Assembly (NCBI GenBank): GCA_963740275.1
Contig: CAVUDT010000002.1
Span: 227,418-291,417 of the forward strand
Reading direction: 5' to 3'
DNA from: an uncultured Acidobacteriota bacterium
GTDB taxonomy: Bacteria; Acidobacteriota; Vicinamibacteria; Vicinamibacterales; 2-12-FULL-66-21
DNA: 64,000 nucleotides
The notes beneath the pieces were generated by a model. The model worked only from the letters and a program-made list of their open reading frames with translations, did not search any database and was not told where the DNA came from. The stretch's first letter is position 1. Every line of letters starts with the position of its first letter. The translations under genes were made by a program, and so were the position numbers. Below are positions 35,266 to 59,732 of this stretch, one piece after another.

Positions 35266-35330
35266 CCCATGCCCCATCCCCCATTCCCCATCCCCGATTC
35301 CCCGACTCCCCATCCCCCCGACCCCGATTG
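35266..35330. repeat. heptamer tandem repeat, family 2 (CCCCATC/CCCCATT/CCCGATT...), in the divergent promoter region
   Basis: cccatgccccatcccccattccccatccccgattccccgactccccatccccccgaccccgattg. Confidence 0.6.
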
Positions 35331-35364: not shown

Positions 35365-35698
35365 ATGGAACCGCTCCACGGACTGCTGGACATGCTGGTG
35401 CTGCAAACGCTGATCCTCGGGCCGTTGCACGGGTACGGCATTGCCAAGTCCATCCACGACAGGTCCGATGAAGCCCTGGCGATCGAGTTCGGTTCACTCT
35501 ATCCGGCGCTGAAGCGCCTCGAGCTCAAGGGCTGGATCGCGTCGAAGTGGGACCTGTCCGAGCACAACCGGCGGGCCAAGTACCTATCGGCTCACGCCGG
35601 CAGGCAGAAAAAAGCTTCGGCAAGAGCAGTCAGACTGGCAGCATTTCGCCTCGGCCATCACCCGGGTCATGAAGATCGTACCGGAGGGCCAGTCATGA
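35365..35698 (+). CDS. PadR-family transcriptional regulator; 1-nt frame shift near 35588
   Basis: LDMLVLQTLILGPLHGYGIAKSI...GSLYPALKRLELKGWI...NRRAKY|YRLTPAGRKKLRQEQSDWQHF... The stop overlaps the permease start (ATGA). Confidence 0.7.
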
Positions 35699-38439
35699 CC
35701 ATCTGGAAAAAGCTCCTGCTCCTGTTGCCCTCCCGCCGTCGCGCCGCAGAGCGCGACATGCAAGAAGAACTTGAATCACTCCGGGACATGGCCGAGCCTC
35801 ACGAGCTCGGTAACCTGACGCTCGTCGCCGAGGACGGGCGCGCGACGTGGAGCTGGAGGTGGCTCGAACACCTGGGGCAGGACCTGCGCTACGCACGGCG
35901 TTCCATGCTCCACGACAAGACCTTCACCGCGCTGGCCGCGCTCTCGCTCGCGCTGGGGATCGGTGCCAACACCGCGATCTACAGCTTCACCGAGTCGATT
36001 CTGCTGCGGTCCTTGCCGGTATCGGAGCCGGAAGCCCTTGTGATCATGACGTGGCGGGCCCGGTCGTCGTACACGTCCGCCGCGTCCAGCGGAATGTCGT
36101 TCTCCACCGGGGGCAGCTACAGCGATCCGACGGAAGGCTACATCGGCAGCCAGTTTTCCTATCCCGCCCTCGAGATCTTCCAGCGCAACACCGATGTGCT
36201 GTCGAGTGCGTTCTGCTACTTCGTCGCAGATCGTCTGCATCTCACGATCGACGACGCAACCGAAGTCGTTCGCGGGCAATACGTGTCGGGCAGCTACTTC
36301 AGCGGAATGGGAGTGCCGCCTGCCGCCGGGCGTCTCATCCTGGCGGGCGACGACGAGGAGGGCGCCGCGAGTGTCGCCATTCTCAGCCATCGCTTCAGCC
36401 AGCTCCGATTCGGAGACGCCCGGCAGGCCGTCGGCCGGACCGTGCGAATCAATGACAAGCCGTTCTCGGTGGTTGGCGTGACCCCGCCGGGTTTTTTTGG
36501 CGCAGAGCCGGGGTCGGTGCCCGACGTCTTCGTTCCGATGCATGCCCAGGCGGTTATCGAGTCCGCCGGGGTGATGACCAGCACACTGAACCGCAATCAC
36601 CTCAATCCGAACTACTACTGGATCGAGATCATGGGTCGGCTCGCGCCAGGCGTGAGCCTCGCGCAGGCACAGGCCGTGCTCGCGCCCCAGTTTCGAAGAT
36701 TCGTCGACGCGACTGCGACAACGGAACGGCAGCGCACGAATCTCCCGGATCTGAGGATCACAGACGGCTCGGCGGGTCTCGATAGCATCCGGCGGCGTTA
36801 TGCGAAGCCGGTATTCGTGTTGATGACGATGGCCGGGCTCATTCTGCTCATTGCCTGCGCCAACCTCGCCAACCTTCTGCTCGCGCGCGCCATGTCACGG
36901 CGGCGCGAGATCGCCGTTCGGCTCAGCATCGGCGCCAGCCGGATGCGCATCGTCCGGCAGATGCTGACCGAGAGCGTACTGCTGTCCTCGATTGGTGGTC
37001 TGCTCGGTGTCCTCTGCGCATGGTGGGGCATCCGCGTGCTTACAGCCCTGCTCGCCAGCGGTCGCGAGAACTTCACGCTGCATGCCGAGTTGAACTGGCA
37101 TGTGCTGGCCGCGACTTTCGCACTGTCGGTGTTGACCGGCTTGTTGTTCGGGTCGGTGCCCGCCCTTCAAGCCACCCGCGTTGATGTGATGCCCGCCTTG
37201 AAGCAGAGCAGGACGGCCACCGTGGCGGCGCCCCCCAGGCCTCGTCGTATCGGGTTGAGCCAAACGCTCGTCGTCGCGCAGATCGCCTTCTCGCTCGTGT
37301 TGCTCGTCGCCGCGGGGCTGTTCGGAGGCACGCTATCGAGGCTGCATGCCATCGAGACCGGGTTCAATCGGGAGGACGTCCTGCTGTTTACAGTCAGAGC
37401 CACGTCGGCCGGTTATGAGGGACCGGCGTTGACCCGTGTCTATGAAGACTTGCGAGGACGATTGCAACCGGTACCGGGGGTTGTCAGTGTCAGCCTCTCC
37501 AGTCGGGCGCTGCCGGCGGGAGGAGGCACGATGTCGCGGGTGACGGTGGTCGGCGCGCCACCGGCGCCTCCACCTGTTGCCGGCGAGCGTCCGCCAGACT
37601 ACGCCGGCTTGTTGAGCGTCGGGCCGGCGTTCTTCGAGACCATGCAGATCCCGCTGACGGCCGGGCGCGAGTTCGATGAGCGCGACGTCGCGGGCGCGAC
37701 TCGCGTGGCGATCGTCAATCAGAAGCTCGCCACGGTGCTGGGCCTCAGAAACCCGGTTGGCACGAGAATCATCACCGGTGGCGGCCGCGCCGCGATCGAG
37801 TATGAGATCGTCGGGGTAGTCGGAGACGCGCTCTTTCTGAAACTCAAAGACGAGCAAAGGCCGATGGTCTACTTTTCGTACGTGCAGGATTCGCCGCCAT
37901 GGTCCATGACCTACGAGGTGCGTTCTGCCGGCCATCCGCTGGCGCTTGCCAACACCGTCCGCCAGATCGTCCGCCAGATCGATCCGCGCCTCGCGGTGTC
38001 AGATGTGAAGACGCAGGCGGTACACATCGACCAGGGGATCAGTCAGGAGATCGCGCTCGCACGGCTGTGCACGGTGTTCGCGGGGCTGGCGCTCGTCATC
38101 GCGTGTGTCGGCCTGTATGGAACGGTCGCGTTCAATGTCAGCCGACGCGTCGTCGAGATCGGGGTTCGCATGGCGCTCGGCGCTCAGCGCGCCGGGATCG
38201 TGTGGCTGATCCTTCGCTCGGTGCTGATCCTCGAGCTGCTCGGACTCGCGATCGGCGTGCCGATCGTTCTGCTCGGATCGCGCTACGTTGAGTCGCTGTT
38301 GTTCGGCATCAAGCCGAACGACCCGTTGGTCGTCTCGGCCGGCGTGGCCGCCCTGCTCAGCGCGGGCCTGGTGGCCAGCTACGTGCCGGCGCGACGCGCC
38401 TCGAGCGTCGATCCGATGGTCGCTTTGCGTAACGAGTAG
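35695..38439 (+). CDS. ADOP-family duplicated FtsX/MacB-type permease (915 aa), intact
   Basis: N-terminus MTIWKKLLLLLPSRRRAAERDMQEELESL...LGQDLRYARRSMLHDKTFT... Two FtsX-like 4-TM bundles (…LIACANLANLLLARA… and …IACVGLYGTVAFNVSRR…). Confidence 0.85.
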   Translation: MTIWKKLLLLLPSRRRAAERDMQEELESLRDMAEPHELGNLTLVAEDGRATWSWRWLEHLGQDLRYARRSMLHDKTFTALAALSLALGIGANTAIYSFTESILLRSLPVSEPEALVIMTWRARSSYTSAASSGMSFSTGGSYSDPTEGYIGSQFSYPALEIFQRNTDVLSSAFCYFVADRLHLTIDDATEVVRGQYVSGSYFSGMGVPPAAGRLILAGDDEEGAASVAILSHRFSQLRFGDARQAVGRTVRINDKPFSVVGVTPPGFFGAEPGSVPDVFVPMHAQAVIESAGVMTSTLNRNHLNPNYYWIEIMGRLAPGVSLAQAQAVLAPQFRRFVDATATTERQRTNLPDLRITDGSAGLDSIRRRYAKPVFVLMTMAGLILLIACANLANLLLARAMSRRREIAVRLSIGASRMRIVRQMLTESVLLSSIGGLLGVLCAWWGIRVLTALLASGRENFTLHAELNWHVLAATFALSVLTGLLFGSVPALQATRVDVMPALKQSRTATVAAPPRPRRIGLSQTLVVAQIAFSLVLLVAAGLFGGTLSRLHAIETGFNREDVLLFTVRATSAGYEGPALTRVYEDLRGRLQPVPGVVSVSLSSRALPAGGGTMSRVTVVGAPPAPPPVAGERPPDYAGLLSVGPAFFETMQIPLTAGREFDERDVAGATRVAIVNQKLATVLGLRNPVGTRIITGGGRAAIEYEIVGVVGDALFLKLKDEQRPMVYFSYVQDSPPWSMTYEVRSAGHPLALANTVRQIVRQIDPRLAVSDVKTQAVHIDQGISQEIALARLCTVFAGLALVIACVGLYGTVAFNVSRRVVEIGVRMALGAQRAGIVWLILRSVLILELLGLAIGVPIVLLGSRYVESLLFGIKPNDPLVVSAGVAALLSAGLVASYVPARRASSVDPMVALRNE

Positions 38440-38449: not shown

Positions 38450-39916
38450 TCAGGCCGGGCGCCGCGCGAACATCAGGTAGACACCGCCGGCGACCGCGAA
38501 CCCGATGAACCACGCGTAGTCGAACAGCGGCCGCAACGGTTCGTAGACGAGCCCGATCCACGCCACCGCGCAGCCGGCAAGCGTGGCGAGGATCCCGGCC
38601 GGGTTCCACGCCCCATACCGCCCCTCGCTGAGATAGAGATCCTCGAGCGCCAGCTGACGCCGACGGACGATCCAGTAGTCGGCGATCAGCACCCCGGCGA
38701 TGGATCCAAGGCCGCCGGAATAGCCGACCAGCCAGCTGAAGATGTAGCCGGACGGATCCGCCAGCAGCTTCCACGGCATGATGACGATGCCGAGGATGCC
38801 GGTGATGAGTCCACCGGTCTTGAAGTTGATGGCCTTGGGAAACGCATTGGCGAAATCGTTCGCGGGTGAGACGACGTTGGCGGCAATGTTGACCGCCAGC
38901 GTGGCGACCACGGCGGTGAACATCGAGATGGCGATGACCAGCGGTGAGCTGAAACGGCCGACCAGCTTGATTGGATCCCAGATCACCTCGCCATAGATGA
39001 TCGTCGTCGCGCTGGTGATGAGCACGCCCATCGCCGCGAAGAGAAACATCGTCGTCGGCAGCGCGACCGTCTGGCCGATGACCTGCTCGCGCTGGCTGCG
39101 GCCGAAGCGGGTGAAGTCGGGCATGTTCAGCGACAGCGTCGCCCAGTAGCCGACCATCGCCGTCAGCGACGGGATGAAGATCGGCATGAATTCGCCGAGC
39201 GTCTGGAACTTGCCGGGTTGTGAAAGGAGAGGGCCGAGGCCGTCGGCCTCGGACACCGCCCAGGCGAGCAATACGCCGGTCATGATCAGGACGAACGGCG
39301 CGGCCCAGTTCTCCACCGCCCGCAGCAGGTCCATGCCCTTGTAGATGATCCCGATGTTCAGGCCCCAGAACAGCAGGAAGGAGATCCATTCGGTGGTCGT
39401 GTGGCCGTCGAAGCCGGCGCCGAGCAGCGTCGGCCAGCCCGGGATCACGCTGGTGAAGAACGTCTGCAGCGCCTCGCCGCCGATCCAGCCCTGGATGCCG
39501 AACCAGCCGCAGGCCACCAGCGCGCGCATCAGCGCCGGGAGGTTCGAGCCGAGGGTGCCGTACGCAGCTCGCGCGTAGACGGGGAATGGGATGCCGTACT
39601 TCGTGCCGGGGTGAGAGTTGAGCAGGATCGGGATGAGCACGATCGTGTTGCCCAGTCCCACCGTGAACAGGGCCTGTCCCCAGCTCATGCCGGCGGCCAT
39701 CAGTCCGGCCGACAGCATGTAGGTGGGGATGCAGTGCGCCATGCTGATCCAGAGCGCGGCGTAGTTATAGGTCGTCCAGGTGCGGCGCACGATCGGCACC
39801 GGCGCGAGATCCTCGTTGTAGAGCGCGCTCTGTTCGACCCGGGACGTGTCGGTCAACTCGACGCGCCCGTCAGGGTGCTCGACCTGGCTCCTTGCCACTG
39901 GGATCATCGCGCGCAT
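38450..39916 (-). CDS. NCS1-family nucleobase/hydantoin:cation symporter
   Basis: 12 TM. Motifs WISMAHCIPTY, FGxQGWIGG-like (CGWFGIQGWIGGEAL). The longer ORF to 40120 is an overextension. Confidence 0.85.
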   Translation of the reverse strand: MRAMIPVARSQVEHPDGRVELTDTSRVEQSALYNEDLAPVPIVRRTWTTYNYAALWISMAHCIPTYMLSAGLMAAGMSWGQALFTVGLGNTIVLIPILLNSHPGTKYGIPFPVYARAAYGTLGSNLPALMRALVACGWFGIQGWIGGEALQTFFTSVIPGWPTLLGAGFDGHTTTEWISFLLFWGLNIGIIYKGMDLLRAVENWAAPFVLIMTGVLLAWAVSEADGLGPLLSQPGKFQTLGEFMPIFIPSLTAMVGYWATLSLNMPDFTRFGRSQREQVIGQTVALPTTMFLFAAMGVLITSATTIIYGEVIWDPIKLVGRFSSPLVIAISMFTAVVATLAVNIAANVVSPANDFANAFPKAINFKTGGLITGILGIVIMPWKLLADPSGYIFSWLVGYSGGLGSIAGVLIADYWIVRRRQLALEDLYLSEGRYGAWNPAGILATLAGCAVAWIGLVYEPLRPLFDYAWFIGFAVAGGVYLMFARRPA

Positions 39917-39935
39917 TGTATAGGCAGCGCGCGGA

Positions 39936-40576
39936 TCAAGAGCGCTGAACGACTCCGGCGCCACCCCGTGAAGGGATCCGGTACGCCTTTTTGATCTCGA
40001 TCGCTGGAGCGAGGCTCTGGCCCTGGACGGGCTGCCGCTGAATGACGCGCACGACATCCAGGCCGGCGACCACCCGGCCGAACGCCGCCGTGCCCTGGCC
40101 ATCGTCGAATCGCTTGCCACCGTGGTTCAGCGAGGGCTGATCGTTCAGGTGAATCGACGAACCCGGACCGCGCCGAGTCGGCCTGGTCGCCGCGCGGCAT
40201 CGAGACCGTGCCGACGACGTGGGTGAGTCCGGTGACGCTGGTGCGCTCGAGCGGGATTGCCGGAAATCGCTCGGCGCCGCGCGCCGGGTTGATGTCTGCC
40301 TGGATGATCTCCAGGAGAGGACGGTTGGGCAGGTTGGGCGTGTAGTTGTCGGCCCGGGTCGCGCGATGAACGCGGCCGCCGTCGTAGAACCCTCCGTCGA
40401 CGTACTTGAGGAAGTTGCCGGCGGTGATCGGCGCCCGAGCCGATGTCGATGGCGAGATCGACGTTGCCGAACGCGGTTTCGATCCGGACGAGGACCTCGC
40501 CTCGCGCCGGATCGGATTGCTGGGCCGCCGGGGCCGCCAGCAGGACGGCGGCGAGGAGCATGACTCGTGTCCGCAT
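39936..40576 (-). pseudogene. secreted cyclophilin-type peptidyl-prolyl isomerase, frame shifted twice (~40425 and ~40185)
   Basis: Signal MRTRVMLLAAVLLAAPAAQQ. PITAGNFLKYVDGGFYDGGRVHR. ...GTVSM... then ...HLNDQPSLNHGGKRFDDGQGTAAFGRVVAGLDVV in a third frame. Confidence 0.6.
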
Positions 40577-40777
40577 CGGTTCCTCCCTCCGGCAACCTGA
40601 CCAGCCTCCGCCAAGGCTTCGGCGGTCCGCCGTAGCTTTAGCGAAGGCGGAACGGCTGCGCTACAGGCCTTCAGTTGTGTAGATCGTAGCCTGCGCGCGC
40701 GCTTCACGAAACCTCTAACGCTGCCGCGTCGCGCCACCGGTTGACGTTCGACCCGAGCGGATGCATACTCCGGTCGT

Positions 40778-41131
40778 ATGTCTACCCGAAGAGGCGAACG
40801 TGACCCCGTGACTCTCTTGCAGGGCACGCTGGACCTGCTGATCCTTCGAACCCTGATCTTTGGTCGCCAGCACGGGCAGGGGATTGCGCGCGCGATCGAA
40901 CAGCAGGCGGAAGACACACTGCTCGTGGATCACGGCTCGCTCTATCCGGCGCTGCAACGGCTCGAAACCCGCGGATGGATCTCGGCCGAGTGGGGTGCCT
41001 CCGACAACAACCGCAAGGCGCGCTTCTACACGCTGACCCGGACCGGGCGCAAGCAGCTCGTCGCCGAGACCCGGCAGTGGCGGCGCCTGGCCGCCGCGAT
41101 CGGCCGGATCATCGGGCCGGAGGAGGCATAG
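40778..41131 (+). CDS. PadR-family transcriptional regulator (intact)
   Basis: [23 protein letters not shown]...[42 protein letters not shown]. Confidence 0.85.
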
Positions 41132-41135
41132 CGCG

Positions 41136-43830
41136 ATGTTCTGGCGGAAACGGCGCACCGAGGAGGATTTCGCCGACGAGATCCGCGCGCACCTCGAGCA
41201 CGAGGTCGAGCGGCTGGTCGACGCGGGGATGACGCGCGACGATGCGCACATGGCCGCGCATCGCCGGTTCGGCAGTCTCACCCGCACGCGCGAACAATTC
41301 CACGACGCGCGGACGCACCATCTGGCTGGAGCAGTTCGCGCAGGATCTCCGCTACGCCTGGCGCGGACTGTGGCAGAGCCCGACGTTTGTCGCCACCACC
41401 GTGCTGACGCTCGCGGTCGGCATGAGCCTCGTAACGGTGGTGTTCGCCATCTTCAATGCGTACGTGCTCCGCCCCTTCGCCGTCCGCGATCCGTACGATC
41501 TGTATGCGATCGGCTGGCGATCGCAGGAGGCCGGCGGATCCACGTTCCGCTGGCGTGATTACGAAGAGATCCGGACCCGGGACGATCTGTTCGACGGGAT
41601 GGTCGGCGAGGCGACGGCGCGGCAGGATCTCGGCGGAGGGGCAGCAGCTCCTCGTCGGGTTCGTAACCGGCGATTACTTCGAGACGCTTGGCCCCCGCGT
41701 CCTCCTGGGCCGCGCCCTGACGGCTGACGATGCGCGGACTCCAGGTGGCGAGCCCGTCGCGGTGCTCACCGATCAGGCCTGGGCGCGCCTGTTCGACCGT
41801 GATCCGTCGGTCCTCGGCCGCGAGCTCGAGGTGAGCGGCCGGAAGCTGGTAGTCGTGGGGGTGATGGCCGGGTTCGGCGGGCTCGATGATCTGCCGCGGG
41901 ACCTCTGGGTTCCGGTCACCATGTTTGATGCGCTGGCCGGCGGGGACCTGTTCGGATCAAAACAACCGCGCCAGCTGCGGCTGACCGCCCGGTTGCGCGC
42001 CGGCGTGACACCGCAGCAAGTGCAGGGTTCTCTCGCCCTCTCGCCGTTCGAGACGCGCGTGGCCGGACGGATCGGACCCAGTGCGGGCGCATCTCGAATT
42101 GCAGGCCACGCCGAATCAGCTGACGCTTGAGGGAATGGCCCTGCTGTCCCCGGTGGTCGCAGCGTTCGGGCTGGTGCTGGTCGCCGCCTGCGCGAACGCG
42201 TCGAACGTGATGATGGCCCGGGCGAACGCGCGACATCGAGAGATCGGCGTCCGGCTGTCGATCGGAGCCAGCCGCGGCCGCATCGTGCGGCAGCTGACGA
42301 CCGAGGGTCTGCTGCTCGCGCTGCTGGCCGGGGTCACCGGTCTCGCGCTCGCGGGCGCGTTGCTCCGAATCGGCATGGTCCTGTTCGTCGCGATGTTGCC
42401 GCCGGCTCTCGCGCTCCGCGTGAGGTTTGTGCCACTCGATTTCGACCACCGGGTGTTTCTCTTCGCGCTCCTGGTCGCCGGTGCCACCACCACCGTGTTT
42501 GCGCTGCTGCCGGCACTGCAGTCCACGCGGTTGACCTTGACCGAGGCGCTTCGAGGACAGGTCAGCGCCACCATCCGAAGCTCCAGCCTCAGGAGCCTGC
42601 TGGTGACCAGCCAGGTTGCAGTCTCGCTGCTGCTTCTGGTGGTCTCCGCGACGCTGGTGCGGAACGGCGCCGCGATTCGGGCGACCGATCTCGGCATGAA
42701 AACCTCAGGCGTGATCTCGGTCAGACCGGGTGGAAATGATGCTCAGGCGCTGCTGGCTCGCGCGCACACGGCGCTGACGCAGGACCCCCTCGTCGAACAG
42801 ATCGTCGTCACCAGCCGCAACCCGCTGTTCGGAGAATCACCGAAGACGCCGGTGCTGCAGGCGTCCGGCGTGGTGCTGGCGTCCTATCGGTTCGTATCAC
42901 CCGGATACTTCGCCATGTTGGGGATGCCGATCGTTCGGGGCCGTGGGTTCGCCCCGGAGGACGCACGTCAGGAAGCGCCGGTGGCGATCGTCAGCGCTGC
43001 TGGTGCCAGACGGTTATGGCCTGACGACGATCCGATCGGCAAGACGCTGCGGATCAGTATTCCCCCGGCCGGCCAGCGACGGGTCGCGGATACCGTCCAC
43101 GAAATTCGCAAGGTGGGGGACGTCTGGGCGGGCGCGTTGGTCGTGACCGTCATCGGCGTCACGACGGACGTCGTGAGCGGCTTCGTGTACGAGGGCACCG
43201 ATCCGGCGCACCTCTATCTGCCGACCAGCCCGACCGGCTCTCGAGCCGGCGAGCTCATGGTTCGTCTTCGCTCGGATACACGCGGGCCTGCGGCCGGACA
43301 GCTCGATGGAATCCAGTCCGGCATTCCTCTCGACGAGCTCAAGACGGTCCTCACCCGGGCGCATCCCGACCCGCTGGCGTTCGACATCCTCTCGCTGGAT
43401 GAGATCGTCGCCCTCCAGATGTTTCCGCTGCGCGCGGCATCGTGGATCGGATCGCTGTTGAGCGCAGTCGCGGTGGCGCTGAGCGTCTCAGGCCTCTACG
43501 GCGTCCTGACCTACGTGTTCGGGCAGCGCAGACAGGAGATCGGCATCCGGATGGCGCTCGGTGCGAGCGGCTCTGCGGTCATCGGGCTCGTGGTCCGCCA
43601 GTCTGCTCGACTGGCCGGACTCGGCGCCGCCATCGGCGTGGCTCTCGCGTTCACCGTAATGAAGGTCCTGAGCAGCCATCGTTCGGCTGGACAACGTCTC
43701 GGTGATCGACCCCGGCGCCTTTGCCGTCAGCATCGCGCTGATCGCCGCTGCCGTGGCCGTCGCCTCCTATGCCCCGGCGCGCCGCGCGGCCCGAATCGAT
43801 CCGTTGTCGATGCTCCGAACGGACCAGTGA
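41136..43830 (+). pseudogene. ADOP-family duplicated FtsX/MacB-type permease with at least four frame shifts (~41318, ~41640, ~42085, ~43680)
   Basis: N-terminus MFWRKRRTEEDFADEIRAHLEHEVERLVDAGMTRDDAHMAAHRRFGSL. ...LEQFAQDLRYAWRGLWQSPTFVATTV... FtsX halves continue in four successive frames. The true C-terminus ...YAPARRAARIDPLSMLRTDQ is in yet another frame. Confidence 0.65.
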
Positions 43831-44090
43831 GATCGGTGCCCCGCGTGGCCATCGGCGATGTCATGCTGCCGCGTTGACTGAGCGCAAGTGCTTTTCCTAC
43901 ACCTGCCGTCACCGCTATGGCCTCAGGTTTTGCACCCACGGCGATGTCAGTCTCGTCCTTCATGAGTCAGACGGTTGCACTGCGGCTGGTCTCAGATTCT
44001 GCGAAGCCGGCGAGCGCATGTTCACATCGTCGCGCATTGTATAATCCGATTCCCCCCTCGACCCCGGCAGCTCCCGTTTCTGGAGGCGTC

Positions 44091-46949
44091 ATGCGCATTC
44101 GGCAGCAGCTTCTGTTCGCATTCACCGCCGTGGCGCTCGCCTGCAGTGCCGGCGTGGTCGGCGCCCGGCAGCAGGCCGTGCCGGCGGCGCCCGTCACCTC
44201 GACTGCCGCAACCGCGGCGCTCGACCAGCCGGTGCCGCTCGACCCGGCGATCACCGCCGGCCGGTTCGAGAACGGTCTTCGTTACTTCATTCGCAAGACC
44301 CGGCGTCCGGAACAGCGTGCCGAACTGAGGCTGGTCGTCGATGTCGGCTCGATCGTCGAAGAAGACGACCAGCGCGGGCTGGCGCACTTCGTCGAGCACA
44401 TGGCCTTCAACGGCACGAAGAACTTTCCCAAGCAGGAGACGGTGACCTTTCTCGAATCGCTGGGCATGCGGTTCGGCCCGAGCATCAATGCGTCCACCAG
44501 CTTCGACGAGACCGTCTACATGCTGCAGGTGCCGACGGAAAAGCCCGAGGTCCTGGACCGGGCCTTCCTGATCCTGGAGGACTGGGCGCACGGGGTGACG
44601 TTCGACCCGGCCGAGATCGACAAGGAGCGCGGCGTGATCCGGGAAGAGTGGCGCATCCGGCGCGGCGCCGGCGCCCGCATGCAGGACAAGCAGCTGCCGG
44701 TCATGCTGAAGGGCTCCCGCTACGCCGACCGCATCCCCATCGGCACGATGGCGGTGATCGACAACTTCAAGCACGAGCGGCTGACCCAGTTCTACCGGGA
44801 CTGGTACCGGCCGGATCTCATGACCGTCGTGGCGGTCGGGGACTTCGATCCACCCGCGGTCGAGAAGATGATCAAGGCCCACTTCGAGCCGATCCCGGCG
44901 GCAAAGACGCCCAGACCGCGTCCGAGCTATCCGGTGGCCGATCATCCGGGCACGCTCTACGCTATCGCCACCGACGCCGAGGCGCAGTCCGCCACGATCA
45001 ACGTCCAGAGCAAGATGCCGCTGCGCGATCCGCGCTCGGTCGGCGCCCAGCGCGGAGACATCGTCGAACGTCTCTTCAGCAGCATGCTCGGCGCTCGCTT
45101 CGCCGAGCTGGCGCAGAGGCCGGATGCGCCGTTTATCGCCGCCGGCGCCGGGCGCGGCCTTTTCGTCCGGACGAAGTCGTTGTCTACCCTGAGCGCGGTC
45201 GCCAAGGGGAACGCCATCGACAAGACGCTGGAGGTGCTGTTCACGGAAACAGAACGGGTGGCGCGGTTCGGGTTCACGCCGGGTGAGCTGGAACGCACGA
45301 AGTCGAACCTGCTGAACAGCTTCGAACGAGCGGTGAACGAGAGGGAAAATACCCTGGCTGCGTCGCTGGCCAACGAGCTGGTGCGGCACGTCACCGCCCG
45401 CGAACCGGTGCCGGGGATCGTGTATGAGACCGCGCTGTATCGGCGCTTTCTGCCGGAGATCACCCTGACGGAGGTGAACGCGCTCGCCCGCGACTGGGCT
45501 CCCGACCGCAGCCGGGTCATCACCGTCAGCGCCCCTGAGAAACCGGGGATTGCGGTCCCCGACGAGAAGGCGTTGGCGGCGGTGATCGCGTCGATTCCCG
45601 GCCGGGAGATCACCGCCTACGTCGATACCGTCAATTCCACGCCGCTGCTCGAGACGCTTCCCCCACCGGGCGCGGTCGTCAGCACCGACACGAAACCGGC
45701 TTTCGGCATCACCGAATGGAAGCTGGCGAACGGCGTCAAGGTGGTGCTCAAGCCGACCGACTTCAGGGCCGACGAGATCCTGTTCCGCGCGATCAGCTAC
45801 GGCGGTTCCTCGCAGGCCTCCGACGCCGACTTCGTGCCGGCCAGCAGCGCCGCGATGGTCATGGGCGCCGGCGGCATCGGCCAGTTCAGCCTGGTCGACG
45901 TCCGCAAGAAGCTGACGGGCAAGTCGGCCGGGGTCACGGCGTTCATCACCGACTACGAGGAGGGGCTGACCGGTAATTCGTCGAGGAAGGACCTGGAAAC
46001 GATGTTCCAGCTGCTTCACCTGCGCTTCACCCAGCCGCGCGCGGACCCCAATGCGTTCCGGATCATGCAGGTGCAGATGAAATCCCAGCTGCCGCTGCAG
46101 CGCGGCAACCCGGCATTTCTCTTCGCCGAGGCCCTGACCGCGGCCCTGCGCGGGAACCACCTGCGGTCGAGACTCGGCACCATGGAGCAGGTCGAGCAGA
46201 TGAACCTCGAGAAGTCGCTGGCGTTCTACAAGGACCGCTTTGGCGACGCCGGCGACTTCACCTTCGTGTTCGTCGGCAACTTCACCCTCGACGAGCTGAA
46301 GCCGCTGGTCGAGCGATATATCGGGTCGCTGCCGGCTACCGGCCGCAAGGAGACGTGGAAGGACACCGGCCAGCGCTACGCCCGCGGGGTGATCGAGAAG
46401 CGGGTGGAGAAGGGGCTGGAGCCGAAGAGCCAGGCGGCGATCGTCTTCACCGGTGACTTCAAGTACGTCCAGGAACAGCGGGTGGCGATCACCGCGCTCA
46501 ACGAGGTGCTCCAGGCGCGGCTCCACGAGACGCTGCGCGAGGATCTCGGCGGCACCTACGGGGTCACCTCGTCGGTGAACTACCTCCGCATTCCGGTGCC
46601 GGAGTACACGATCACCGTCAGTTTCAGCTGTGCCCCGGAACGCACCGAGGAGCTCGTCAAGGCGGTCTTCCAGCAGGTGGAGCGGTTGAAGGCCGAGGGG
46701 CCGGCGGAGACGCAGGTCACCGACGCCCGGGAAAAGCTGCTGCGCGACTACGAGACCAATCGGAAGCAGAACGGCTACTGGGTGACGCAGCTGGCAGGAC
46801 GATACCAGTCAGGGGAGCCGGTCGATTCGCTGTTCGGGATGTTGGAGCACTACCGGCAGATCACGCCGGCGATGATCCGCGATGCCGCCAGGCTGTACCT
46901 GAACCCCGCCAACCATGTGACGGTGACGCTGTTCCCGGGGATCAAATGA
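44091..46949 (+). CDS. secreted two-domain M16-family zinc metallopeptidase (insulinase/pitrilysin-like)
   Basis: Signal MRIRQQLLFAFTAVALACSAGVVGA. HxxEH box GLAHFVEHMAFNG. Second inactive M16 half. GGAGG SD before ATG 44091. Confidence 0.85.
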   Translation: MRIRQQLLFAFTAVALACSAGVVGARQQAVPAAPVTSTAATAALDQPVPLDPAITAGRFENGLRYFIRKTRRPEQRAELRLVVDVGSIVEEDDQRGLAHFVEHMAFNGTKNFPKQETVTFLESLGMRFGPSINASTSFDETVYMLQVPTEKPEVLDRAFLILEDWAHGVTFDPAEIDKERGVIREEWRIRRGAGARMQDKQLPVMLKGSRYADRIPIGTMAVIDNFKHERLTQFYRDWYRPDLMTVVAVGDFDPPAVEKMIKAHFEPIPAAKTPRPRPSYPVADHPGTLYAIATDAEAQSATINVQSKMPLRDPRSVGAQRGDIVERLFSSMLGARFAELAQRPDAPFIAAGAGRGLFVRTKSLSTLSAVAKGNAIDKTLEVLFTETERVARFGFTPGELERTKSNLLNSFERAVNERENTLAASLANELVRHVTAREPVPGIVYETALYRRFLPEITLTEVNALARDWAPDRSRVITVSAPEKPGIAVPDEKALAAVIASIPGREITAYVDTVNSTPLLETLPPPGAVVSTDTKPAFGITEWKLANGVKVVLKPTDFRADEILFRAISYGGSSQASDADFVPASSAAMVMGAGGIGQFSLVDVRKKLTGKSAGVTAFITDYEEGLTGNSSRKDLETMFQLLHLRFTQPRADPNAFRIMQVQMKSQLPLQRGNPAFLFAEALTAALRGNHLRSRLGTMEQVEQMNLEKSLAFYKDRFGDAGDFTFVFVGNFTLDELKPLVERYIGSLPATGRKETWKDTGQRYARGVIEKRVEKGLEPKSQAAIVFTGDFKYVQEQRVAITALNEVLQARLHETLREDLGGTYGVTSSVNYLRIPVPEYTITVSFSCAPERTEELVKAVFQQVERLKAEGPAETQVTDAREKLLRDYETNRKQNGYWVTQLAGRYQSGEPVDSLFGMLEHYRQITPAMIRDAARLYLNPANHVTVTLFPGIK

Positions 46950-47097
46950 TTGCGGATTGGGGATTGCGGATTGTTGACTGACGGATTGTAGATTGGGGAT
47001 TGTGGATTGATGGTCGAAGCGCTTGCAATCAACACTCGACAATCCCAATCCGCGATCCCTAATCCGTCGATCAGCAATCCGCGATCCCCAATCCGCA
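46949..47097. repeat. ~150-bp imperfect palindrome built from family-2 heptamers (GATTGCG/GATTGGG arm, centre AAGCGCTT, then CCCAATC/CCGCAATC arm) between convergent genes
   Basis: gattgcggattggggattgcggattg...gattggggattgtggattg | tcgaagcgcttgcaatc | caatcccaatccgcgatccctaatccg...caatccgcgatccccaatccgc. Confidence 0.7.
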
Positions 47098-47098
47098 C

Positions 47099-48496
47099 TC
47101 AAAGAGTTGGTGCCTGTGAGGCCCCCCGCGTCAGGAAGCGGCCGGCGCCTTTCTTGCCGACGAAGGTGTCGCCGTCGATCACCACCTGGCCGTTGCAGAT
47201 GACCATCGACGGCGATCCCTGCACGGTCCGGCCCTCGTAGGGGTTGTAGTCCACGTTCATGTGGAGGGTCTTCACCCCCAGCGTGGCGGAGCGGTTCGGA
47301 TCGAAGACCACCAGGTCGGCGTCGCTGCCGACCGCGATCGTTCCCTTGCGCGGGAACAGGCCGAACATCTTGGCCGGCGTGGTCGAACACAGCTCGACGA
47401 ACCGGTTCATCGTGATCCGCCCGGGGCGGACGCCGCCGTCGTGGACCAGCGTCAGCCGGGTCTCGATCCCGGGCGCGCCGTTCGGGATCTTGCTGAAGTC
47501 GTCTTTGCCGAGCGCCTTTTCCGCCATGCAGAACGGGCAATGGTCGGTCGAGATCACCTGCAGATCGTTCTTCGCCAGCCCCTTCCACAGCACGTCCTGG
47601 TGCCACTTCTCCCGCAGCGGTGGCGACATCACGTACTTCGAGCCTTCGAACCCCGGCTCCTCGTAGTTGTCGTACGACAGGAACAGGTACTGCGGGCAGG
47701 TCTCGGCGTAGGCCGGCAGGCCCATGTCGCGCGCCTGCCTGACCTTCTCGAGCGCATGCGCGGCCGAGAGATGGACGATGTAGATGGGGACGCCGGCCAT
47801 TTCCGCCAATGCGATCGCCCGGCCGGTGGCTTCTCCCTCGGCGGTCGGCGGACGGGTCAGGGCGTGATACTTCGGCGCCGTCTCGCCCTTGCGGAGCGCC
47901 TCCCGCACCAGCTCGTCGATCACCCCGCCGTTCTCGGCGTGCATGCAGACCAGCCCGCCGTTCTCGCCGGTGCGCCGCAACGCTCTGAAGATCGTCGCGT
48001 CGTCCACCATGAAGACGCCGGGGTAGGCCATGAACAGCTTGAAGCTGGTGATCCCTTCGTCGCGGACCATGCGGTCCATCTCGCCGAGCCCGGCGTCCTC
48101 CAGCTCGGTGATGATCATGTGGAAGCCGTAGTCGATCACCGCCTTGCCGTCGGCGCGCTGCCGCCAGTCGTCGAGCGCGTGCCTCATCGTCTGGCCGCGA
48201 TACTGGATCGCGAAGTCGACGATCGAGGTGGTGCCGCCGAACGCCGCCGCGATCGTGCCGGTCTCGAAGTCGTCGGCCGACGTGGCGCCGCCGAACGGCA
48301 TGTTCAGGTGGGTATGGACGTCGATGCCACCAGGGATCACGTACTGGCCCGTTGCGTCGATCGTCCGCTCCGCCTGGAAGCGGTGGGCCGGCAGGTCGCG
48401 GCCGATCGCCGCGATCGTGCCGTTTTCGCAGTACACGTCGGCGACATAGTCGTCCGACGCCGTGACGATGCGTCCGTTGGTGATGAGAAGCGACAC
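47099..48496 (-). CDS. dihydropyrimidinase / D-hydantoinase (cyclic amidohydrolase)
   Basis: GGIDVHTHLNMPF...; carboxylated-Lys region ITSFKLFMAY; ...VISTDHCPF... Confidence 0.85.
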   Translation of the reverse strand: MSLLITNGRIVTASDDYVADVYCENGTIAAIGRDLPAHRFQAERTIDATGQYVIPGGIDVHTHLNMPFGGATSADDFETGTIAAAFGGTTSIVDFAIQYRGQTMRHALDDWRQRADGKAVIDYGFHMIITELEDAGLGEMDRMVRDEGITSFKLFMAYPGVFMVDDATIFRALRRTGENGGLVCMHAENGGVIDELVREALRKGETAPKYHALTRPPTAEGEATGRAIALAEMAGVPIYIVHLSAAHALEKVRQARDMGLPAYAETCPQYLFLSYDNYEEPGFEGSKYVMSPPLREKWHQDVLWKGLAKNDLQVISTDHCPFCMAEKALGKDDFSKIPNGAPGIETRLTLVHDGGVRPGRITMNRFVELCSTTPAKMFGLFPRKGTIAVGSDADLVVFDPNRSATLGVKTLHMNVDYNPYEGRTVQGSPSMVICNGQVVIDGDTFVGKKGAGRFLTRGASQAPTL

Positions 48497-48497
48497 C

Positions 48498-48797
48498 TCA
48501 GGTCCTGGCGGCAGCGGGGGAGGCGTGCTCAGCCGAGGTCGGATCGAAGATGTTCTTCACTTCATCTATCCGGTTGGCGGGAAAGCCGCCTCGCGACGCA
48601 TGTTCCCGAATCATCTCTTCGTTGGGAGCGATGTAGATGCAATAGATCTTGTCGCCGGTGACGTAGCTGTGAACCCATTGGATCCGCGGACCGAGCGCGT
48701 TCAACACTTCATTCGACTTCTGAGCGACGCCGCGCAGCTGCTCGGCGGTGAACGCACCCGCTCCCGGAATCTCACGTTCGATCACGTACTTCGGCAT
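48498..48797 (-). CDS. DUF4242-family small protein
   Basis: MPKYVIEREIPGAG...IQWVHSYVTGDKIYCIYIAPNEEMIREHASRGGFPA. Confidence 0.6.
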   Translation of the reverse strand: MPKYVIEREIPGAGAFTAEQLRGVAQKSNEVLNALGPRIQWVHSYVTGDKIYCIYIAPNEEMIREHASRGGFPANRIDEVKNIFDPTSAEHASPAAART

Positions 48798-48806
48798 ACG
48801 GGCCTC

Positions 48807-50285
48807 CTAATAGAGATTTCCTGATCGCTTGCCGCCGGTGTAGTCGACGTAGACGACCTTCAGTTCGGTATAGAAGTCGATCGCCACGCTGCCCATCTCG
48901 CGGAGCCCGACGCCGGTCGCCTTCATGCCGCCGAAGGGGATGTGGGCCTCGCCGCCGACGGTCGGCGAGTTCACGTGGATGATTCCGGCCTCGAGCTCGT
49001 CGACGAAGTGGAACATCGAGGCAACATCGGTGGTGTAGATCGATGCCGACAGACCAAACCTGACCTCGTTGGCGATGCGCAGGGCGGTCTTCGCGTCTGC
49101 GGCACGGATGACCGAAAGGACCGGCCCGAAGATCTCTTCCTGCGCGATCCGCATGCCGGGATCGACGTGGTCGAAGATGGCCGGCGCCACGAAGTAGCCG
49201 CGGTCGCGTCCGCCGTCGCCGAGTCGCTCGCCGCCGCGGACCAGTTGTGCCCCCTCGCTCCTGCCGATGCCGACGTACTCGAGCACCGTTTCCAGCTGCT
49301 TGTCGTCCACCGACGGGCCGACGTTCGTCTTCGGGTCCATGCCGTTGCCGGTGACCAGCGAGGCCGCGCGCGCGTGCAGGCGCTCGACGAATTCGCTGGC
49401 GATCGAATCCGCGACCACCGCCCGGCTGGTGGCGGTGCAGCGCTGGCCGGTCGATCCGAACGCTCCCTGGATCGTGCTCTCGACCGCCAGCTCGAGATCC
49501 GCGTCGGCCAGCACCACGATCGGGTTCTTGCCCCCCATCTCGCACTGGCACTTGATGCCGCGGGCCGCCGCGGCGGAGTAGAGGCCGACGCCGACGTCAT
49601 TCGAGCCGGTGAACGACACCGCCTGGATCGCCGGATGCTTCACGATCGTGTCGCCGACCTCGCGTCCGCCGCCGTAGATCAGGTTCAGCACGCCTGGCGG
49701 CAGGCCGCATTCCTCGAAGATCTCGACGATCAACGTCGCGGTGAGCGGCGTCAGGCTCGCCGGCTTGAACACGATCGTATTGCCCGAGACCAGCGCCGGA
49801 GCGATCTTCCAGATCGGGATCGCGATCGGGAAGTTCCAGGGCGTGATGATCGCCACCGGGCCAACCGGCTGCTTGAGGGTGTAGCAGAAGTTGCTCGGCA
49901 GCTCGGACGGTATCGTCTCGCCGGTGATCCGGCGCGCCTGCCCGGCGAAGAACTCGACGACGTTGATCGCGCGCTGGACCTCGCCGCGGGACTCGCCGAT
50001 CGTCTTGCCCTCTTCGCGGGTCAGGGCTTCCGCCAGCTCCTGCTTGCGGTCCTCCATCCGCCGCTGGACCTTGAACAGGATCTGGCCGCGGACCGGCGCC
50101 GGCGTCCGGCGCCAGCCCTCGAACGCGCGGGCGGCGGCCTCGCACGCCTGCGCCGCCTCGGCCGCGGTCGAAGCCGGGGCCTCGGCTACGACCTCGGAGG
50201 CGTCGGCCGGGTTGTAATCGGGGATCATCTTCCCGCTCTGCGAGTCGGTCCATTGACCGGCGATGAAATTCTTCAGTGTGCGCAT
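48807..50285 (-). CDS. NAD(P)-dependent aldehyde dehydrogenase (semialdehyde dehydrogenase candidate in the pyrimidine/beta-alanine pathway)
   Basis: ...ITPWNFP...FTGS...; catalytic GQRCTA; glutamate box ...EEIFGPV... Confidence 0.85.
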
Positions 50286-50291
50286 CGGGAA

Positions 50292-50354
50292 CCTGAACGA
50301 AACTCAGAACTCAGAACTCAGCATCCAGAACCTGGAACCCAGAACCTAGAACCT
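50292..50354. repeat. heptamer tandem repeat, family 1 (reverse orientation, ~8 units), in the divergent promoter region
   Basis: aactcagaactcagaactcagcatccagaacctggaacccagaacctagaacctga. Confidence 0.6.
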
Positions 50355-50421
50355 GATGAGCCCCCCTGTCAAGGCAGCGAGTGCTAAGATGCCGGCTTCA
50401 ACCCCGCAAGGAGATCATCAA

Positions 50422-51555
50422 ATGGGCGCTGATTTGTCGGTCACATTCACCGGCCTGCGATTCCCGAACCCGTTCCTGTTGTCGTCGGCGCCGCCGACCG
50501 AATCCGACAGCAACATCATGCGTGCCTTCGACGCCGGATGGGGCGGCGTGGTCACCAAGACGATCGGCCTGCACCCGGTGACCAACGTCGCCGGACCCAA
50601 GACCAAGTTCCTGCGGACAGACCCGGCGACGACGCGGATGTCGATGCAGAAGCGACCGGGGAGCGCGCTCCACTCATCGTGGAACTGGGAGCTCATCTCC
50701 GACAAGACGATCGACTGGTGGCTGCCGAAGATCGAGCGCATCAAGGCGGCGCATCCCGACCGGATCCTGGTGGCGTCGATCATGGCCGGATCCGGCAGCG
50801 ACAAGGAGCTGCGGCACTGGCAGGAGCTGGCGGCGGGGTGCCAGGATGCCGGCGCCGACGCCTTCGAGCTCAACCTCTCGTGCCCGCACATGGACCGGCA
50901 AGACATGGGATCCAATGTCGGCAAGGATGCCGGCCTGATCTCCGTCGTCACCAAGGTCGTGAAGGAAGTCGCGCGGGTGCCGGTGTGGTGCAAGCTGACG
51001 CCGTCCACGACCGACATCGCCGCCGAGGCGCGCGCGTCGTTCGCCGCCGGCGCCGACGCGATCGTGTCGTCGAACACGTTCCCGTCGCTGCCGCCGATCG
51101 ACCCGGCGACGCTGGAGTTCGAGGTCAACGTCGACGGCTACGTGTCGAGCGGCGGTCTCGGCGGCCCGGCCATCCTGCCGCTCTCGCTCGCCAAGATGGC
51201 GCAGATGACGCAGGTCTTCCCCGATAAGGCCTTCTCCGGCATCGGCGGCGTCTCGGATTTCTCGCACGCGCTCAGTTTTTTCCTGCTCGGCTGCGGCACC
51301 GTCCAGGTCTGCACCGCCGCGATGCTCGACCATGCGATCGGTCCCGGCGTGATCAAGGGACTGAACGAGGGGCTGGCGGCGTTTCTCGAGGCGAACGCCG
51401 ACCGGGGCTGGAAGTCGGTCGACGACTTCCGCGGCCTCCGCCGCGACCGTGTCGTTCAGCACTCGAAGATCCGGCGGCCGGAGGGGAAGGAATACTTCGG
51501 TGGGCAGGATGCGCCGGAAGGCTACGCCGCGCCGTCAGAGGTAGCGGGCCGCTGA
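50422..51555 (+). CDS. dihydroorotate/dihydropyrimidine dehydrogenase-family flavoprotein (PreA-like catalytic subunit candidate)
   Basis: LRFPNPFLLSSAPPTES...GWGGVVTKTI...ELNLSCPHM...CKLTP...VSSNT...; AAGGAG SD 8 nt before ATG 50422. Confidence 0.75.
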   Translation: MGADLSVTFTGLRFPNPFLLSSAPPTESDSNIMRAFDAGWGGVVTKTIGLHPVTNVAGPKTKFLRTDPATTRMSMQKRPGSALHSSWNWELISDKTIDWWLPKIERIKAAHPDRILVASIMAGSGSDKELRHWQELAAGCQDAGADAFELNLSCPHMDRQDMGSNVGKDAGLISVVTKVVKEVARVPVWCKLTPSTTDIAAEARASFAAGADAIVSSNTFPSLPPIDPATLEFEVNVDGYVSSGGLGGPAILPLSLAKMAQMTQVFPDKAFSGIGGVSDFSHALSFFLLGCGTVQVCTAAMLDHAIGPGVIKGLNEGLAAFLEANADRGWKSVDDFRGLRRDRVVQHSKIRRPEGKEYFGGQDAPEGYAAPSEVAGR

Positions 51556-51567
51556 CGGCATGGCAAA

Positions 51568-51627
51568 GGGAAATGGCAGATGGTAGAAAGCGGCTAACAG
51601 TCGCCCGTCTACCATCTACCATTTCCC
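51568..51627. terminator. 20-bp-stem hairpin between convergent genes (candidate bidirectional terminator, no clear U-tract)
   Basis: gggaaatggcagatggtaga-N20-tctaccatctaccatttccc (one mismatch). Confidence 0.35.
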
Positions 51628-51638
51628 ATCACCATTAC

Positions 51639-52192: not shown

Positions 52193-52288
52193 GTTCAGCT
52201 CCTAGTCAAGCTGTCAGCTCTCAGCCCTCAGCTATCAGCAAATCCTCAAACACCAATCACCGATCCGCAGTCCCCATCCCCCATCCCC
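52193..52288. repeat. composite heptamer-periodic repeat, family 2 (CAGCTNN units then CACCAAT/CCGCAGT/CCCCATC units)
   Basis: cagttcagctcctagtcaagctgtcagctctcagccctcagctatcagcaaatcctcaaacaccaatcaccgatccgcagtccccatcccccatcccc. Confidence 0.6.
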
Positions 52289-52861
52289 TCAGTAACCCAT
52301 TTCCCGCTGAATCCCTCTGACTATACGTTCGAGCTCTTCGACCAGCTTACCGCCGCCGGCATGCCGGAAGGCGCGCACCAGCCCTTCGTAGTAGGCGATC
52401 ACGTCGTCGGCGGGCGCGTTGAACCGGTCCCAGACCTCCTCGCCGGTGTTCCGCAGGTCCCGCAGGATCGCGTAGGAATTGTGCACCTTGTCGGCCGCCG
52501 CCACTCGCAGGCTGGGGGCAGGAAGCGCACGGGCGTGTTCGATGTAGTCGCGCTTGCGATCGATCCAGGGACGCTTGGGCGTTTCCCACGAGTCGGTGCA
52601 GTCTTCGACGATGCGGGCGACCGGCTCGCCGAAGCGGGCGCGGATCTCCTCGAGCCGCGGGCGCCCGCCATGATCCTCGGCGGCGTCGTGCAGCAGCGCG
52701 CCAATCGCTTCGTCCTCGGTGCCGCCGTCGTCGATCACGATCGACGCGACACCCAACAGGTGACCGACGTACGGGGAGCCGTTGCCTTTTCGCCGCTGCT
52801 GGCGATGCACGTCGTGCGTGTATTTCAGGGCGTCATCGAACCGGGCGGTGAGCTCCGTCAT
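52289..52861 (-). CDS. HD-domain metal-dependent phosphohydrolase
   Basis: ...YVGHLLGVA...LLHDAAEDHGG... Confidence 0.7.
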   Translation of the reverse strand: MTELTARFDDALKYTHDVHRQQRRKGNGSPYVGHLLGVASIVIDDGGTEDEAIGALLHDAAEDHGGRPRLEEIRARFGEPVARIVEDCTDSWETPKRPWIDRKRDYIEHARALPAPSLRVAAADKVHNSYAILRDLRNTGEEVWDRFNAPADDVIAYYEGLVRAFRHAGGGKLVEELERIVRGIQREMGY

Positions 52862-57765: not shown

Positions 57766-59607
<1,842 letters not shown>

Positions 59608-59664: not shown

Positions 59665-59732
59665 GATGAATGCTGAAGTAAAGGGGAAATGCTGAAGTAT
59701 CTGAGTCCTTGCCCCTTATTTCAGCATTCAAC
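59665..59732 (-). terminator. ~18-bp-stem imperfect hairpin between the OMP gene and typA (candidate terminator or typA 5'-UTR structure)
   Basis: gaatgctgaagtaaagggg...ccccttatttcagcattc. Confidence 0.3.

Follow-up and report, generated by a model that had tools for sequence, protein, structure and literature searches.

Introduction

Heptamers are the commonest long simple repeats in prokaryotes, according to the summary of Mrazek (2007) in PMC4679880, and their excess is attributed there and in PMC4692102, again with reference to that work, to polymerase slippage. Rehm et al. (2015, PMC4692102) described inverted pairs of such arrays from Xanthomonas (unit GGGAATC) and Nostoc PCC 7120 (unit GGGGA(T/C)T); in Xanthomonas there are 70–75 inverted pairs per genome, the arrays starting on average ~28 nt past the upstream open reading frame (ORF) and being mostly transcribed (PMC4692102). 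Here we analyse a heptamer-built palindrome in a 64,000-nucleotide stretch of DNA, hereafter the window, from an uncultured bacterium of the Acidobacteriota, order Vicinamibacterales (contig CAVUDT010000002.1, positions 227,418–291,417). The element lies at window positions 46947–47101, between the genes of an M16-family peptidase and a dihydropyrimidinase. It is one copy of a dispersed ~150-bp palindrome family within the known class of intergenic heptanucleotide repeats, and it probably marks the 3' ends of both convergent messages. Across the 64 kb sampled, intergenic heptanucleotide repeats are very abundant in this genome.

Other described repeats offer points of comparison. Cyanobacterial STRR heptamers are known from Calothrix, cited as ref. 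39 in PMC4692102. TAACTGA direct repeats occur in marine Beggiatoaceae, cyanobacteria and Bacteroidetes (MacGregor 2015, PMC4679880). Where ORFs converge, REP and BIME elements lie no more than 20 bp from either 3' end (PMC3733652).

Results

Architecture of the element

The palindrome is flanked by the M16-family peptidase gene on the plus strand (43917–46949; Pfam Peptidase_M16 and M16_C) and the dihydropyrimidinase gene on the minus strand (47099–48496; 641 bits with NCBIfam TIGR02033, cut-off 393). It is imperfect, measures 155 bp, and spans the distance from one stop codon to the other, so that the 149-nt gap between both stops is wholly occupied; the original prediction, made from the sequence without database searches, had wedged it exactly between convergent stop codons, and this placement is confirmed. 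The peptidase TGA (46947–46949) overlaps the first heptamer unit, the dihydropyrimidinase stop (TCA on the plus strand, 47099–47101) adjoins the last one, and the two stop codons form the outermost base pairs of the stem. The last codons of the peptidase gene, GGG ATC AAA, are in phase with the heptamer array; the protein ends ...FPGIK*, and its ortholog in the related locus L001 ends ...FPEKKS*.

Both arms are composed of degenerate tandem heptamers, GGATTGN and its complement. The left, G-rich arm (46948–47012, from Tandem Repeats Finder (TRF) and unit parsing) reads GATTGCG GATTGGG GATTGCG GATTGTT GACTGACG GATTGTA GATTGGG GATTGTG GATTGAT; within it, TRF reports period 7, 8.7 copies, 73% matches and the unit GATTGCG for 46948–47009. 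A central spacer or loop (47013–47035) contains the self-complementary AAGCGCTT at 47017–47024. The right, C-rich arm follows (47036–47098), and its outer five units mirror the left arm one by one, as seen from the inverted repeat, the register test and the unit order. TRF assigns this arm a period of 7 with 7.9 copies (47040–47094) or, alternatively, a period of 14 with 80% matches and the unit CCCAATCCGCGATC (47044–47096). The best and longest inverted repeat pairs 46947–47002 with 47046–47101 (56 nt, 82% complementary). When the two arms were compared in different registers, offset 0 gave 73% against 61–64% at ±7, and the period-7 self-match of the gap was 0.58 against at most 0.32 for other periods. 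Heptamer arms joined in a palindrome had been predicted, and sequence, TRF and inverted-repeat analysis all agree on them. The periodicity is looser than the "strict" 7 nt first claimed: a single 8-nt unit (GAYYGACG) interrupts the heptamers of each arm, and the units towards the centre are degenerate. We also considered two independent 3'-flank arrays that had come to lie inverted by chance, and rejected this idea because both arms contain the irregular 8-mer and their unit orders are mirror images.

Relation to other heptamer repeats

The closest match to the element is the heptameric class of Rehm et al. (PMC4692102), to which the cyanobacterial STRR sequences also belong and which is part of the wider heptamer excess that Mrazek et al. 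(2007) noted, as summarised in PMC4679880. Tandem 7-nt units, an intergenic location at ORF 3' ends, an excess of period 7 and inverted pairs, the properties of heptameric simple-sequence repeats, are all found here. Common to the element and the Xanthomonas and Nostoc repeats are degenerate tandem units, an almost exclusively intergenic distribution near the upstream ORF, "convergent" inverted pairs able to form stem-loops, and a length and sequence that, at a given gene pair, vary among close relatives; the GGGGATT unit of the Nostoc type is identical to the GATTGGG units of the element. Since heptamer repeats have been described in both of these genera (PMC4692102), the 7-nt periodicity does not fall outside described repeat families, as had been supposed. 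The element differs from them in belonging to the Acidobacteriota, in consisting mostly of GCGGATT units, which give no G-quadruplex potential, and in sharing its genome with several unrelated heptamer families. The common unit order, G-first polarity and exclusion from divergent gaps that are shown below are absent from the 2015 report (PMC4692102). Among the papers listed by a literature search, none brought Acidobacteria together with intergenic heptamer repeats, and the RAYT/REPIN papers found to mention Acidobacteria describe no such repeats.

As with the STRR repeats, several heptamer families have been amplified in tandem between the genes of this genome. An STRR is recognised by its motif (CCCCAGT, TTGGTCA or CAACAGT), and the element does not match; the phylum and the base composition (67% GC in the window) differ as well. 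One unit with a likeness to STRR, AGTCCCC (complement of GGGGACT), occurs in the window array 28776–28800. The TAACTGA repeats resemble the present ones as a privileged tandem heptamer that is intergenic and common to distant lineages, and a 7-nt-footprint RNA-binding reader has been proposed for them; they differ in that they immediately precede start codons, are inverted in only 1 of 170 cases and number 2–6 copies.

A second copy and descent from an older palindrome

A second, homologous palindrome was found at 57624–57766 (nhmmer E 1e-16), between a convergent tRNA-editing-domain gene (stop 57610) and BipA/TypA (stop 57766). It folds at −68.9 and −84.4 kcal/mol on the two strands, with a gap z of −7.9. 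The two copies, 10.7 kb apart and with unrelated flanks, align across the outer ~57 nt of each arm. All four arms have the same order of units, namely GCG, G(G/T)G, GCG and GC(T/C), followed by the irregular GAYYGACG. To weigh this order, it was shuffled in one element and the between-element alignment was rescored: the observed score is 33.75, the shuffles give 17.7 ± 2.3, and none of 2000 reaches the observed value. This common order in all four arms shows the element to be a copy of a pre-existing palindrome and not one grown in place by slippage.

The 64 kb contain both full copies and, at 28746–28794 (nhmmer E 4e-6, TRF), a solo array that bears a weak likeness to the arms. Beyond these, the arm profile finds weaker relatives in loci L013 and L005, and the irregular module GGATTGNNGAYYGACGGATT has no match outside the window in the fetched loci. 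A recurring repeat family, as opposed to arrays unique to one site, is thus borne out by the second copy and by relatives in other Vicinamibacterales loci.

Folding and comparison with REP-type elements

The long imperfect hairpin that had been envisaged on either strand is supported by folding. The stem comprises ~64 bp on either strand (32 GC, 26 AU and 6 GU pairs), with −98.9 kcal/mol for the plus-strand RNA and −90.4 kcal/mol for the minus-strand RNA (z = −10.1 and −10.5 against 200 dinucleotide shuffles, none of which folded equally well); the DNA fold has −54.5 (z = −9.7). The four arms of both copies, folded singly, are structureless, with minimum free energies (MFE) of −0.2 to −7.2 kcal/mol and z of −0.01 to +0.44. 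Rfam at gathering score gave no match anywhere in the window.

These features bear on the relationship to REP, BIME and REPIN elements (PMC3733652; PMC3116915), which are likewise dispersed extragenic palindromes, whose dimers fold into one long hairpin, which lie near both 3' ends of convergent ORFs and rarely between divergent ORFs, and for which roles as terminator, mRNA stabiliser or gyrase site have been proposed. A REP unit, however, is a 20–40-nt stem-loop (stem 5–13 bp) with a terminal GTAG or CGTC tag, whereas the arm of the present element is an unstructured tandem array; CGTC (GACG) occurs in every arm, but mid-arm within the irregular unit, and GTAG in one arm only. The REP/BIME resemblance drawn in the original prediction therefore holds for position and fails for membership, because the single arms do not fold (z ~0) and bear no terminal tag. 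A further likeness is to two types of intrinsic terminator in high-GC bacteria, named in the WebGeSTer classification: those made of a hairpin only ("I-shaped") and those shared by convergent genes ("X-shaped"). These too are stable stems directly after the stop codon that lack a U-tract and are common to two convergent genes, but they typically consist of 10–20 bp of unique sequence and not of a 60-bp, repeat-built, dispersed family.

Two homologous copies with unrelated flanks 10.7 kb apart, together with the weaker relatives in L013 and L005, are also what a non-autonomous mobile element of REPIN or MITE type would leave, its arms serving as terminal inverted repeats (TIRs) for a transposase encoded elsewhere, for example a RAYT- or TIRYT-like Y1 (HUH) enzyme. 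The placement is REP-like, and Acidobacteria have distinct TIR-associated tyrosine transposases, with one Koribacter set of TIRs forming a repeat family (PMC3733652). The terminal inverted repeats and the size are those of a MITE (arms ~57–60 nt, element 143–155 bp, MITEs in general 50–500 bp), but a target-site duplication is not visible at either copy, where no direct repeat >2 nt was seen and the boundaries are fuzzy. Moreover, single arms remain unfolded, unlike those of REPs, and they depart from GGGGWSAS, the motif reported for the TIRs of TIRYTs. A Pfam scan of the ~56 window ORFs, 19 of which have no match of any kind, returned no transposase family and no RAYT; the RAYT/TnpA_REP-like gene that had been suggested as a partner was therefore not found among these ORFs and could lie elsewhere in the genome. 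We consider mobility of this kind unlikely.

An element that forms a G-quadruplex or i-motif, as proposed for the Xanthomonas and Nostoc heptamers, would be in keeping with the GGGGATT unit that occurs in the arms as in the Nostoc repeats (PMC4692102). A regular-expression scan of both strands of 46940–47110, however, found no run of four G3+ tracts and one two-tetrad motif only, most units are GCGGATT, and the complementary arm gives a far stabler duplex. The element has no G-quadruplex potential, and we regard this explanation as highly improbable.

Related loci and location at gene 3' ends

The flanking proteins assign the window to the Vicinamibacterales of the Acidobacteriota, and the best genome loci match at 83–91% amino-acid identity. 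One related locus, L001, is syntenic with the window and has the orthologous M16–dihydropyrimidinase gap at 91% amino-acid identity. This gap (11415–11625) is occupied by a palindrome with a ~100-bp stem (MFE −173 kcal/mol), made of the 10-mer GGGTTCCAGA, mirrored from both stop codons and also possessing a mirrored non-repeat outer segment AACGGCCTTCGGCCGGGG. An initial reading of it as a heptamer palindrome of another family was corrected, the units being 10-mers. In the methyltransferase–PreA gap of the same locus (6905–7000) stands an ATGCTGA/TTCAGCA heptamer palindrome; it belongs to the same family as the palindrome at window 59665–59752, and the corresponding site in the window has ATGGTAG. 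Other relatives carry GGGCTCA, GGACACA, GTAAATN or AACTCTG arrays past the dihydropyrimidinase stop. Across these loci, the architecture recurs at the same sites, and its sequence turns over.

Arrays with common 7-mers that are neighbours form 24 inverted pairs against 1 direct pair. The window and related loci yield 27 palindromes, every one of which occupies a convergent or co-directional gap; their first arm typically starts between −15 and +17 nt from the upstream stop codon. None of 26 compact palindromes is in a divergent gap, though 21% of gaps are divergent (P ~0.002–0.004). Solo arrays do stand in divergent gaps (35266 and 50296), so the exclusion concerns the hairpin form. Such palindromes are thus shown to sit only at gene 3' ends, their start no more than ~15 nt from a stop codon. 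They also have a direction, with the G-rich arm first in 23 of the 27 (p = 3e-4).

The same architecture in more than 10 independent assemblies speaks against an assembly or sequencing artefact such as a chimeric fold-back, as do the intact orthologous genes that flank the element and the existence of a second copy. Frameshift-like breaks in some window genes do indicate that the assembly is not error-free; even so, an artefactual palindrome is barely credible.

ATTGCGG arrays in environmental contigs

Exact (ATTGCGG)3.6 arrays account for 47 stretches in IMG/VR contigs of 39–70% GC whose flanks are diverse, against 0, 1 and 2 stretches for three composition-matched control heptamers. AGGTTCC gave 6 stretches and GGGGATT 12, the latter count being inflated by eukaryote-like telomeric contigs and not used as evidence. 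An inverted partner accompanies 6 of 60 IMG/VR arrays, in all six cases G-first. Where the gene context is clear, the G-rich strand is the sense strand in 13 of 18 arrays, and these 13 lie within ~10 nt of the flanking gene, on the side that we read as its stop codon; the context comes from a rough gene call based on the GC content of third codon positions, by which 26 arrays still count as inside possibly spurious ORFs. A polarity test by ORF proximity was dropped, as TTG codons within the repeat confounded it.

A privileged motif suggests sequence-specific recognition, and the element could accordingly be a protein-binding platform, in which the heptamer is the site of a cold-shock-domain protein with a 7-nt footprint or the duplex is bound by a nucleoid protein or gyrase as in BIMEs. 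Each arm offers 8–9 phased units with ATTGG/CCAAT-like cores. Both CspA and CspB recognise cores of this type. In B. subtilis, direct repeats of heptamers are occupied by CspB at one molecule for every heptamer (review in PMC4679880, section 19). On the other hand, the genome makes use of many heptamers that are unrelated to one another, and the units are paired in the hairpin and so inaccessible as single strands, which makes a binding platform very unlikely. A bolder idea is that heptamer arrays are no debris of slippage and form a sequence-specific system of many uncultured bacteria and their phages, with a restricted vocabulary (ATTGCGG at 20–50 times the controls), a fixed polarity after stops and, at times, G-first palindromes. 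A protein with a 7-nt footprint, perhaps of the cold-shock-domain type and bound once to every unit, might read such arrays by opening or closing the hairpin, so that termination would depend on conditions; or the arrays might be written by a dedicated enzyme. We offer this as speculation and think it distinctly unlikely.

Two kinds of contig in this collection deserve separate mention. Several of the unrelated contigs with perfect (ATTGCGG)n (L130–L181) hold 3–7 arrays each. L185 (1–2085) and L190 (1–3253) are low-GC one-gene contigs, encoding a ribonucleotide reductase small subunit and an SNF2 helicase, with CCCCAAT... at the left end and ...GGGGATT at the other. Although filed among viral contigs, they have the look of gene-sized chromosomes of ciliate type whose telomeres are heptamers.

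Other heptamer arrays in the window

Heptamer periodicity is seen in 8 of the 34 window intergenic gaps of at least 40 nt, with several unrelated units (AGGTTCC, CAGCTTC, CAACTCC, CCCCAAT/CCGCAAT, CCCCATC, AACTCAG, ATGGTAG and ATGCTGA). Over the window and 129 fetched loci (1.74 Mb, of which the source genome contributes 64 kb and the fetched loci the rest), there are 157 period-7 arrays against 63 in shuffled sequence. Among periods not divisible by three, only period 7 exceeds its shuffles; periods 8, 10 and 11 equal theirs.

Four gaps in the window are palindromic, with gap z from −6 to −17, and three of the four convergent gaps of 40–400 nt carry a palindrome. Besides the two homologous copies, these are an ATGGTAG/CTACCAT palindrome that takes up the whole gap between the convergent PreA-like and methyltransferase genes (51560–51638; period-7 self-match 0.55, z −7.6), and a third family, ATGCTGA/TTCAGCA, between co-directional minus-strand genes (59665–59752; z −6.1). 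A scan for canonical terminators and promoters gave nothing above chance: 11 terminator-like sites against 9.4 expected in the 40–60 kb interval, none at the gene 3' ends considered here and no match at the site of the element.

At least seven solo arrays lie in other intergenic gaps, one of them weakly like an arm of the element. This array, at 28746–28794, resembles the C-rich arm and is part of a 130-nt composite heptamer array (28694–28824) directly 3' of a fatty-acid desaturase stop. Further solo arrays consist of three AGGTTCC units 2 nt past an EamA transporter stop (27644–27663; TRF), AGGTTCC-type units that overlap a stop codon and have an inverted partner 573 nt off (30587–30609), GAACCCG/GAACCTG units 4 nt from the stop of a Band_7 gene (31183–31206), and CCCCATC-type units in a divergent gap (35266–35325). 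AACTCAG/GAACCTG arrays separate the divergent genes of the aldehyde dehydrogenase and the PreA-like dihydropyrimidine dehydrogenase (50296–50357; period-7 self-match 0.65, no hairpin); the 70-nt gap (50286–50355) is made up entirely of these heptamers, with no recognisable promoter or Shine-Dalgarno sequence. A composite array (AGCTCTC ... CCCCATC) lies between co-directional minus-strand genes at 52209–52289; its homology to the composite array at 28694–28824 is suggestive and not claimed, the low-complexity alignment being unconvincing.

The inverted AGGTTCC-type arrays at 30587–30609 and 31183–31206 bracket two tandem copies of ~290 nt (30610–31183), each with a small minus-strand ORF that has a signal-peptide-like N-terminus (MNQ...RRAAQRILLAVLLCALGALSGASVSA) and no Pfam match. 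In locus L006, inverted GTTCGCG/CGCGAAC arrays (5289–5321 and 6494–6542), in successive gaps flanking a fatty-acid desaturase ortholog, together bracket one whole gene over 1.2 kb.

Gene neighbourhood

The dihydropyrimidinase gene belongs to a pyrimidine-catabolism neighbourhood (38450–51555) that includes a cytosine/uracil-type permease (38450–40120), a SCO4226-like small protein (48498–48797), an aldehyde dehydrogenase (48807–50285) and a PreA-like gene (50356–51555). In the relatives L002 and L006 the permease directly follows dihydropyrimidinase, and the adjacency of the M16 gene in the window therefore reflects rearrangement. Two sets of PadR and MacB_PCD/FtsX permease genes are present at 35365–38439 and 40778–43877; in the former the PadR domain (aa 12–82) is within the permease ORF, through either a fusion or a missed stop. 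Farther off, 6724–11223 encodes a 1499-aa protein with DUF7379 and CHAT (caspase-like) domains. The heme-biosynthesis genes at 17243–20741 look broken: the ALAD ORF covers only profile positions 2–193 of 317, the HemC ORF has the C-terminal part only, and stretches without assigned genes are present at 19467–19802 and 20307–20741. Either assembly indel errors or pseudogenes would account for this.

Discussion

The best explanation of the whole, to which we attach roughly even confidence, is that the element is a copy of a dispersed palindrome that acts as a transcript-end hairpin. Stop-to-stop placement, siting at 3' ends only and exclusion from divergent gaps, as with REP/BIME elements and the Xanthomonas repeats, favour a role at the level of the transcript, and the context statistics favour a function at the 3' end. 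We infer that a bidirectional terminator lacking a U-tract, or a hairpin protecting the 3' end, is the most likely role. RNA transcribed from either convergent gene would fold into the ~64-bp stem directly past the stop codon; this stem would stop or stall RNA polymerase without a U-tract, block 3'-to-5' exonucleases, or both. The hairpin would thereby define both mRNA 3' ends and keep polymerases off the antisense strand of the neighbour. With the G-rich arm first, the C-rich arm would be paired as soon as it is made, and, as a potential Rho loading site, it would never be exposed unpaired. A stem of tandem units could, in addition, pair in several registers and tolerate the gain or loss of whole units.

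Several observations weigh against such a function. No T run follows the stem on either strand, as it would in a canonical intrinsic terminator. The arms are 70–81% similar within an element and 73–84% between elements, and they differ by singletons without compensatory pairs; from these similarities and singleton differences the copies descend from a common palindrome and diverge independently, and the arm pattern fits neutral decay of copies rather than maintenance of the stem by selection. Exact-protein look-ups gave no match, and neither the genome loci (at most 91% amino-acid identity) nor the metagenome loci (66–71%) offer an ortholog that aligns with the element or a strain close enough for a test of covariation; the sole alignable orthologous pair, L058/L072 of the Pyrinomonadaceae, has too few stem differences to inform. 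A 64-bp RNA duplex could be a substrate of RNase III, in which case the message would be destabilised and not protected, and hairpins could be missing from divergent gaps simply because purifying selection removes them from promoters, with no positive function at 3' ends. Finally, Rehm et al. detected no regulatory effect of the Xanthomonas repeats (PMC4692102).

The lack of compensatory change, the missing U-tract and the negative functional results in Xanthomonas keep alive a neutral or selfish origin, in which arrays arise by slippage and palindromes by template switching or copying, both being harmless in 3' flanks and having no host function. Arms that decay by singletons, a motif that differs between relatives at the same site, and the spread of solo arrays with these units over gaps of all kinds are as this account would have it, and so is the slippage to which heptamer excess is ascribed in the accounts of Mrazek (2007) given in PMC4679880 and PMC4692102. 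Slippage, however, predicts neither a privileged vocabulary, such as the 47 IMG/VR stretches of (ATTGCGG)3.6 against 0, 1 and 2 for controls, nor G-first polarity, and it does not predict that three of four mid-sized convergent gaps should be filled stop to stop. We judge a purely neutral by-product to be rather unlikely, yet deserving of serious weight.

The element exceeds chance and belongs to a known class, and the additional findings make it a useful test case and not something categorically new. The window and its relatives extend heptamer repeats to a new phylum, the Acidobacteriota, in the order Vicinamibacterales. To our knowledge, no function or origin has been established for heptamer repeats in any organism. 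Any explanation now has to meet four constraints: a conserved unit order in dispersed copies, confinement to 3' ends with exclusion from divergent gaps, G-first polarity, and the excess of ATTGCGG, which is far commoner in environmental contigs than composition-matched heptamers. For annotation, heptamer palindromes are useful as gene-end markers, and they are a likely cause of assembly breaks. Should termination or protection of transcripts indeed be their role, these hairpins would replace canonical terminators, in a lineage that seemingly lacks them, by structures that are built of repeats and evolve fast.

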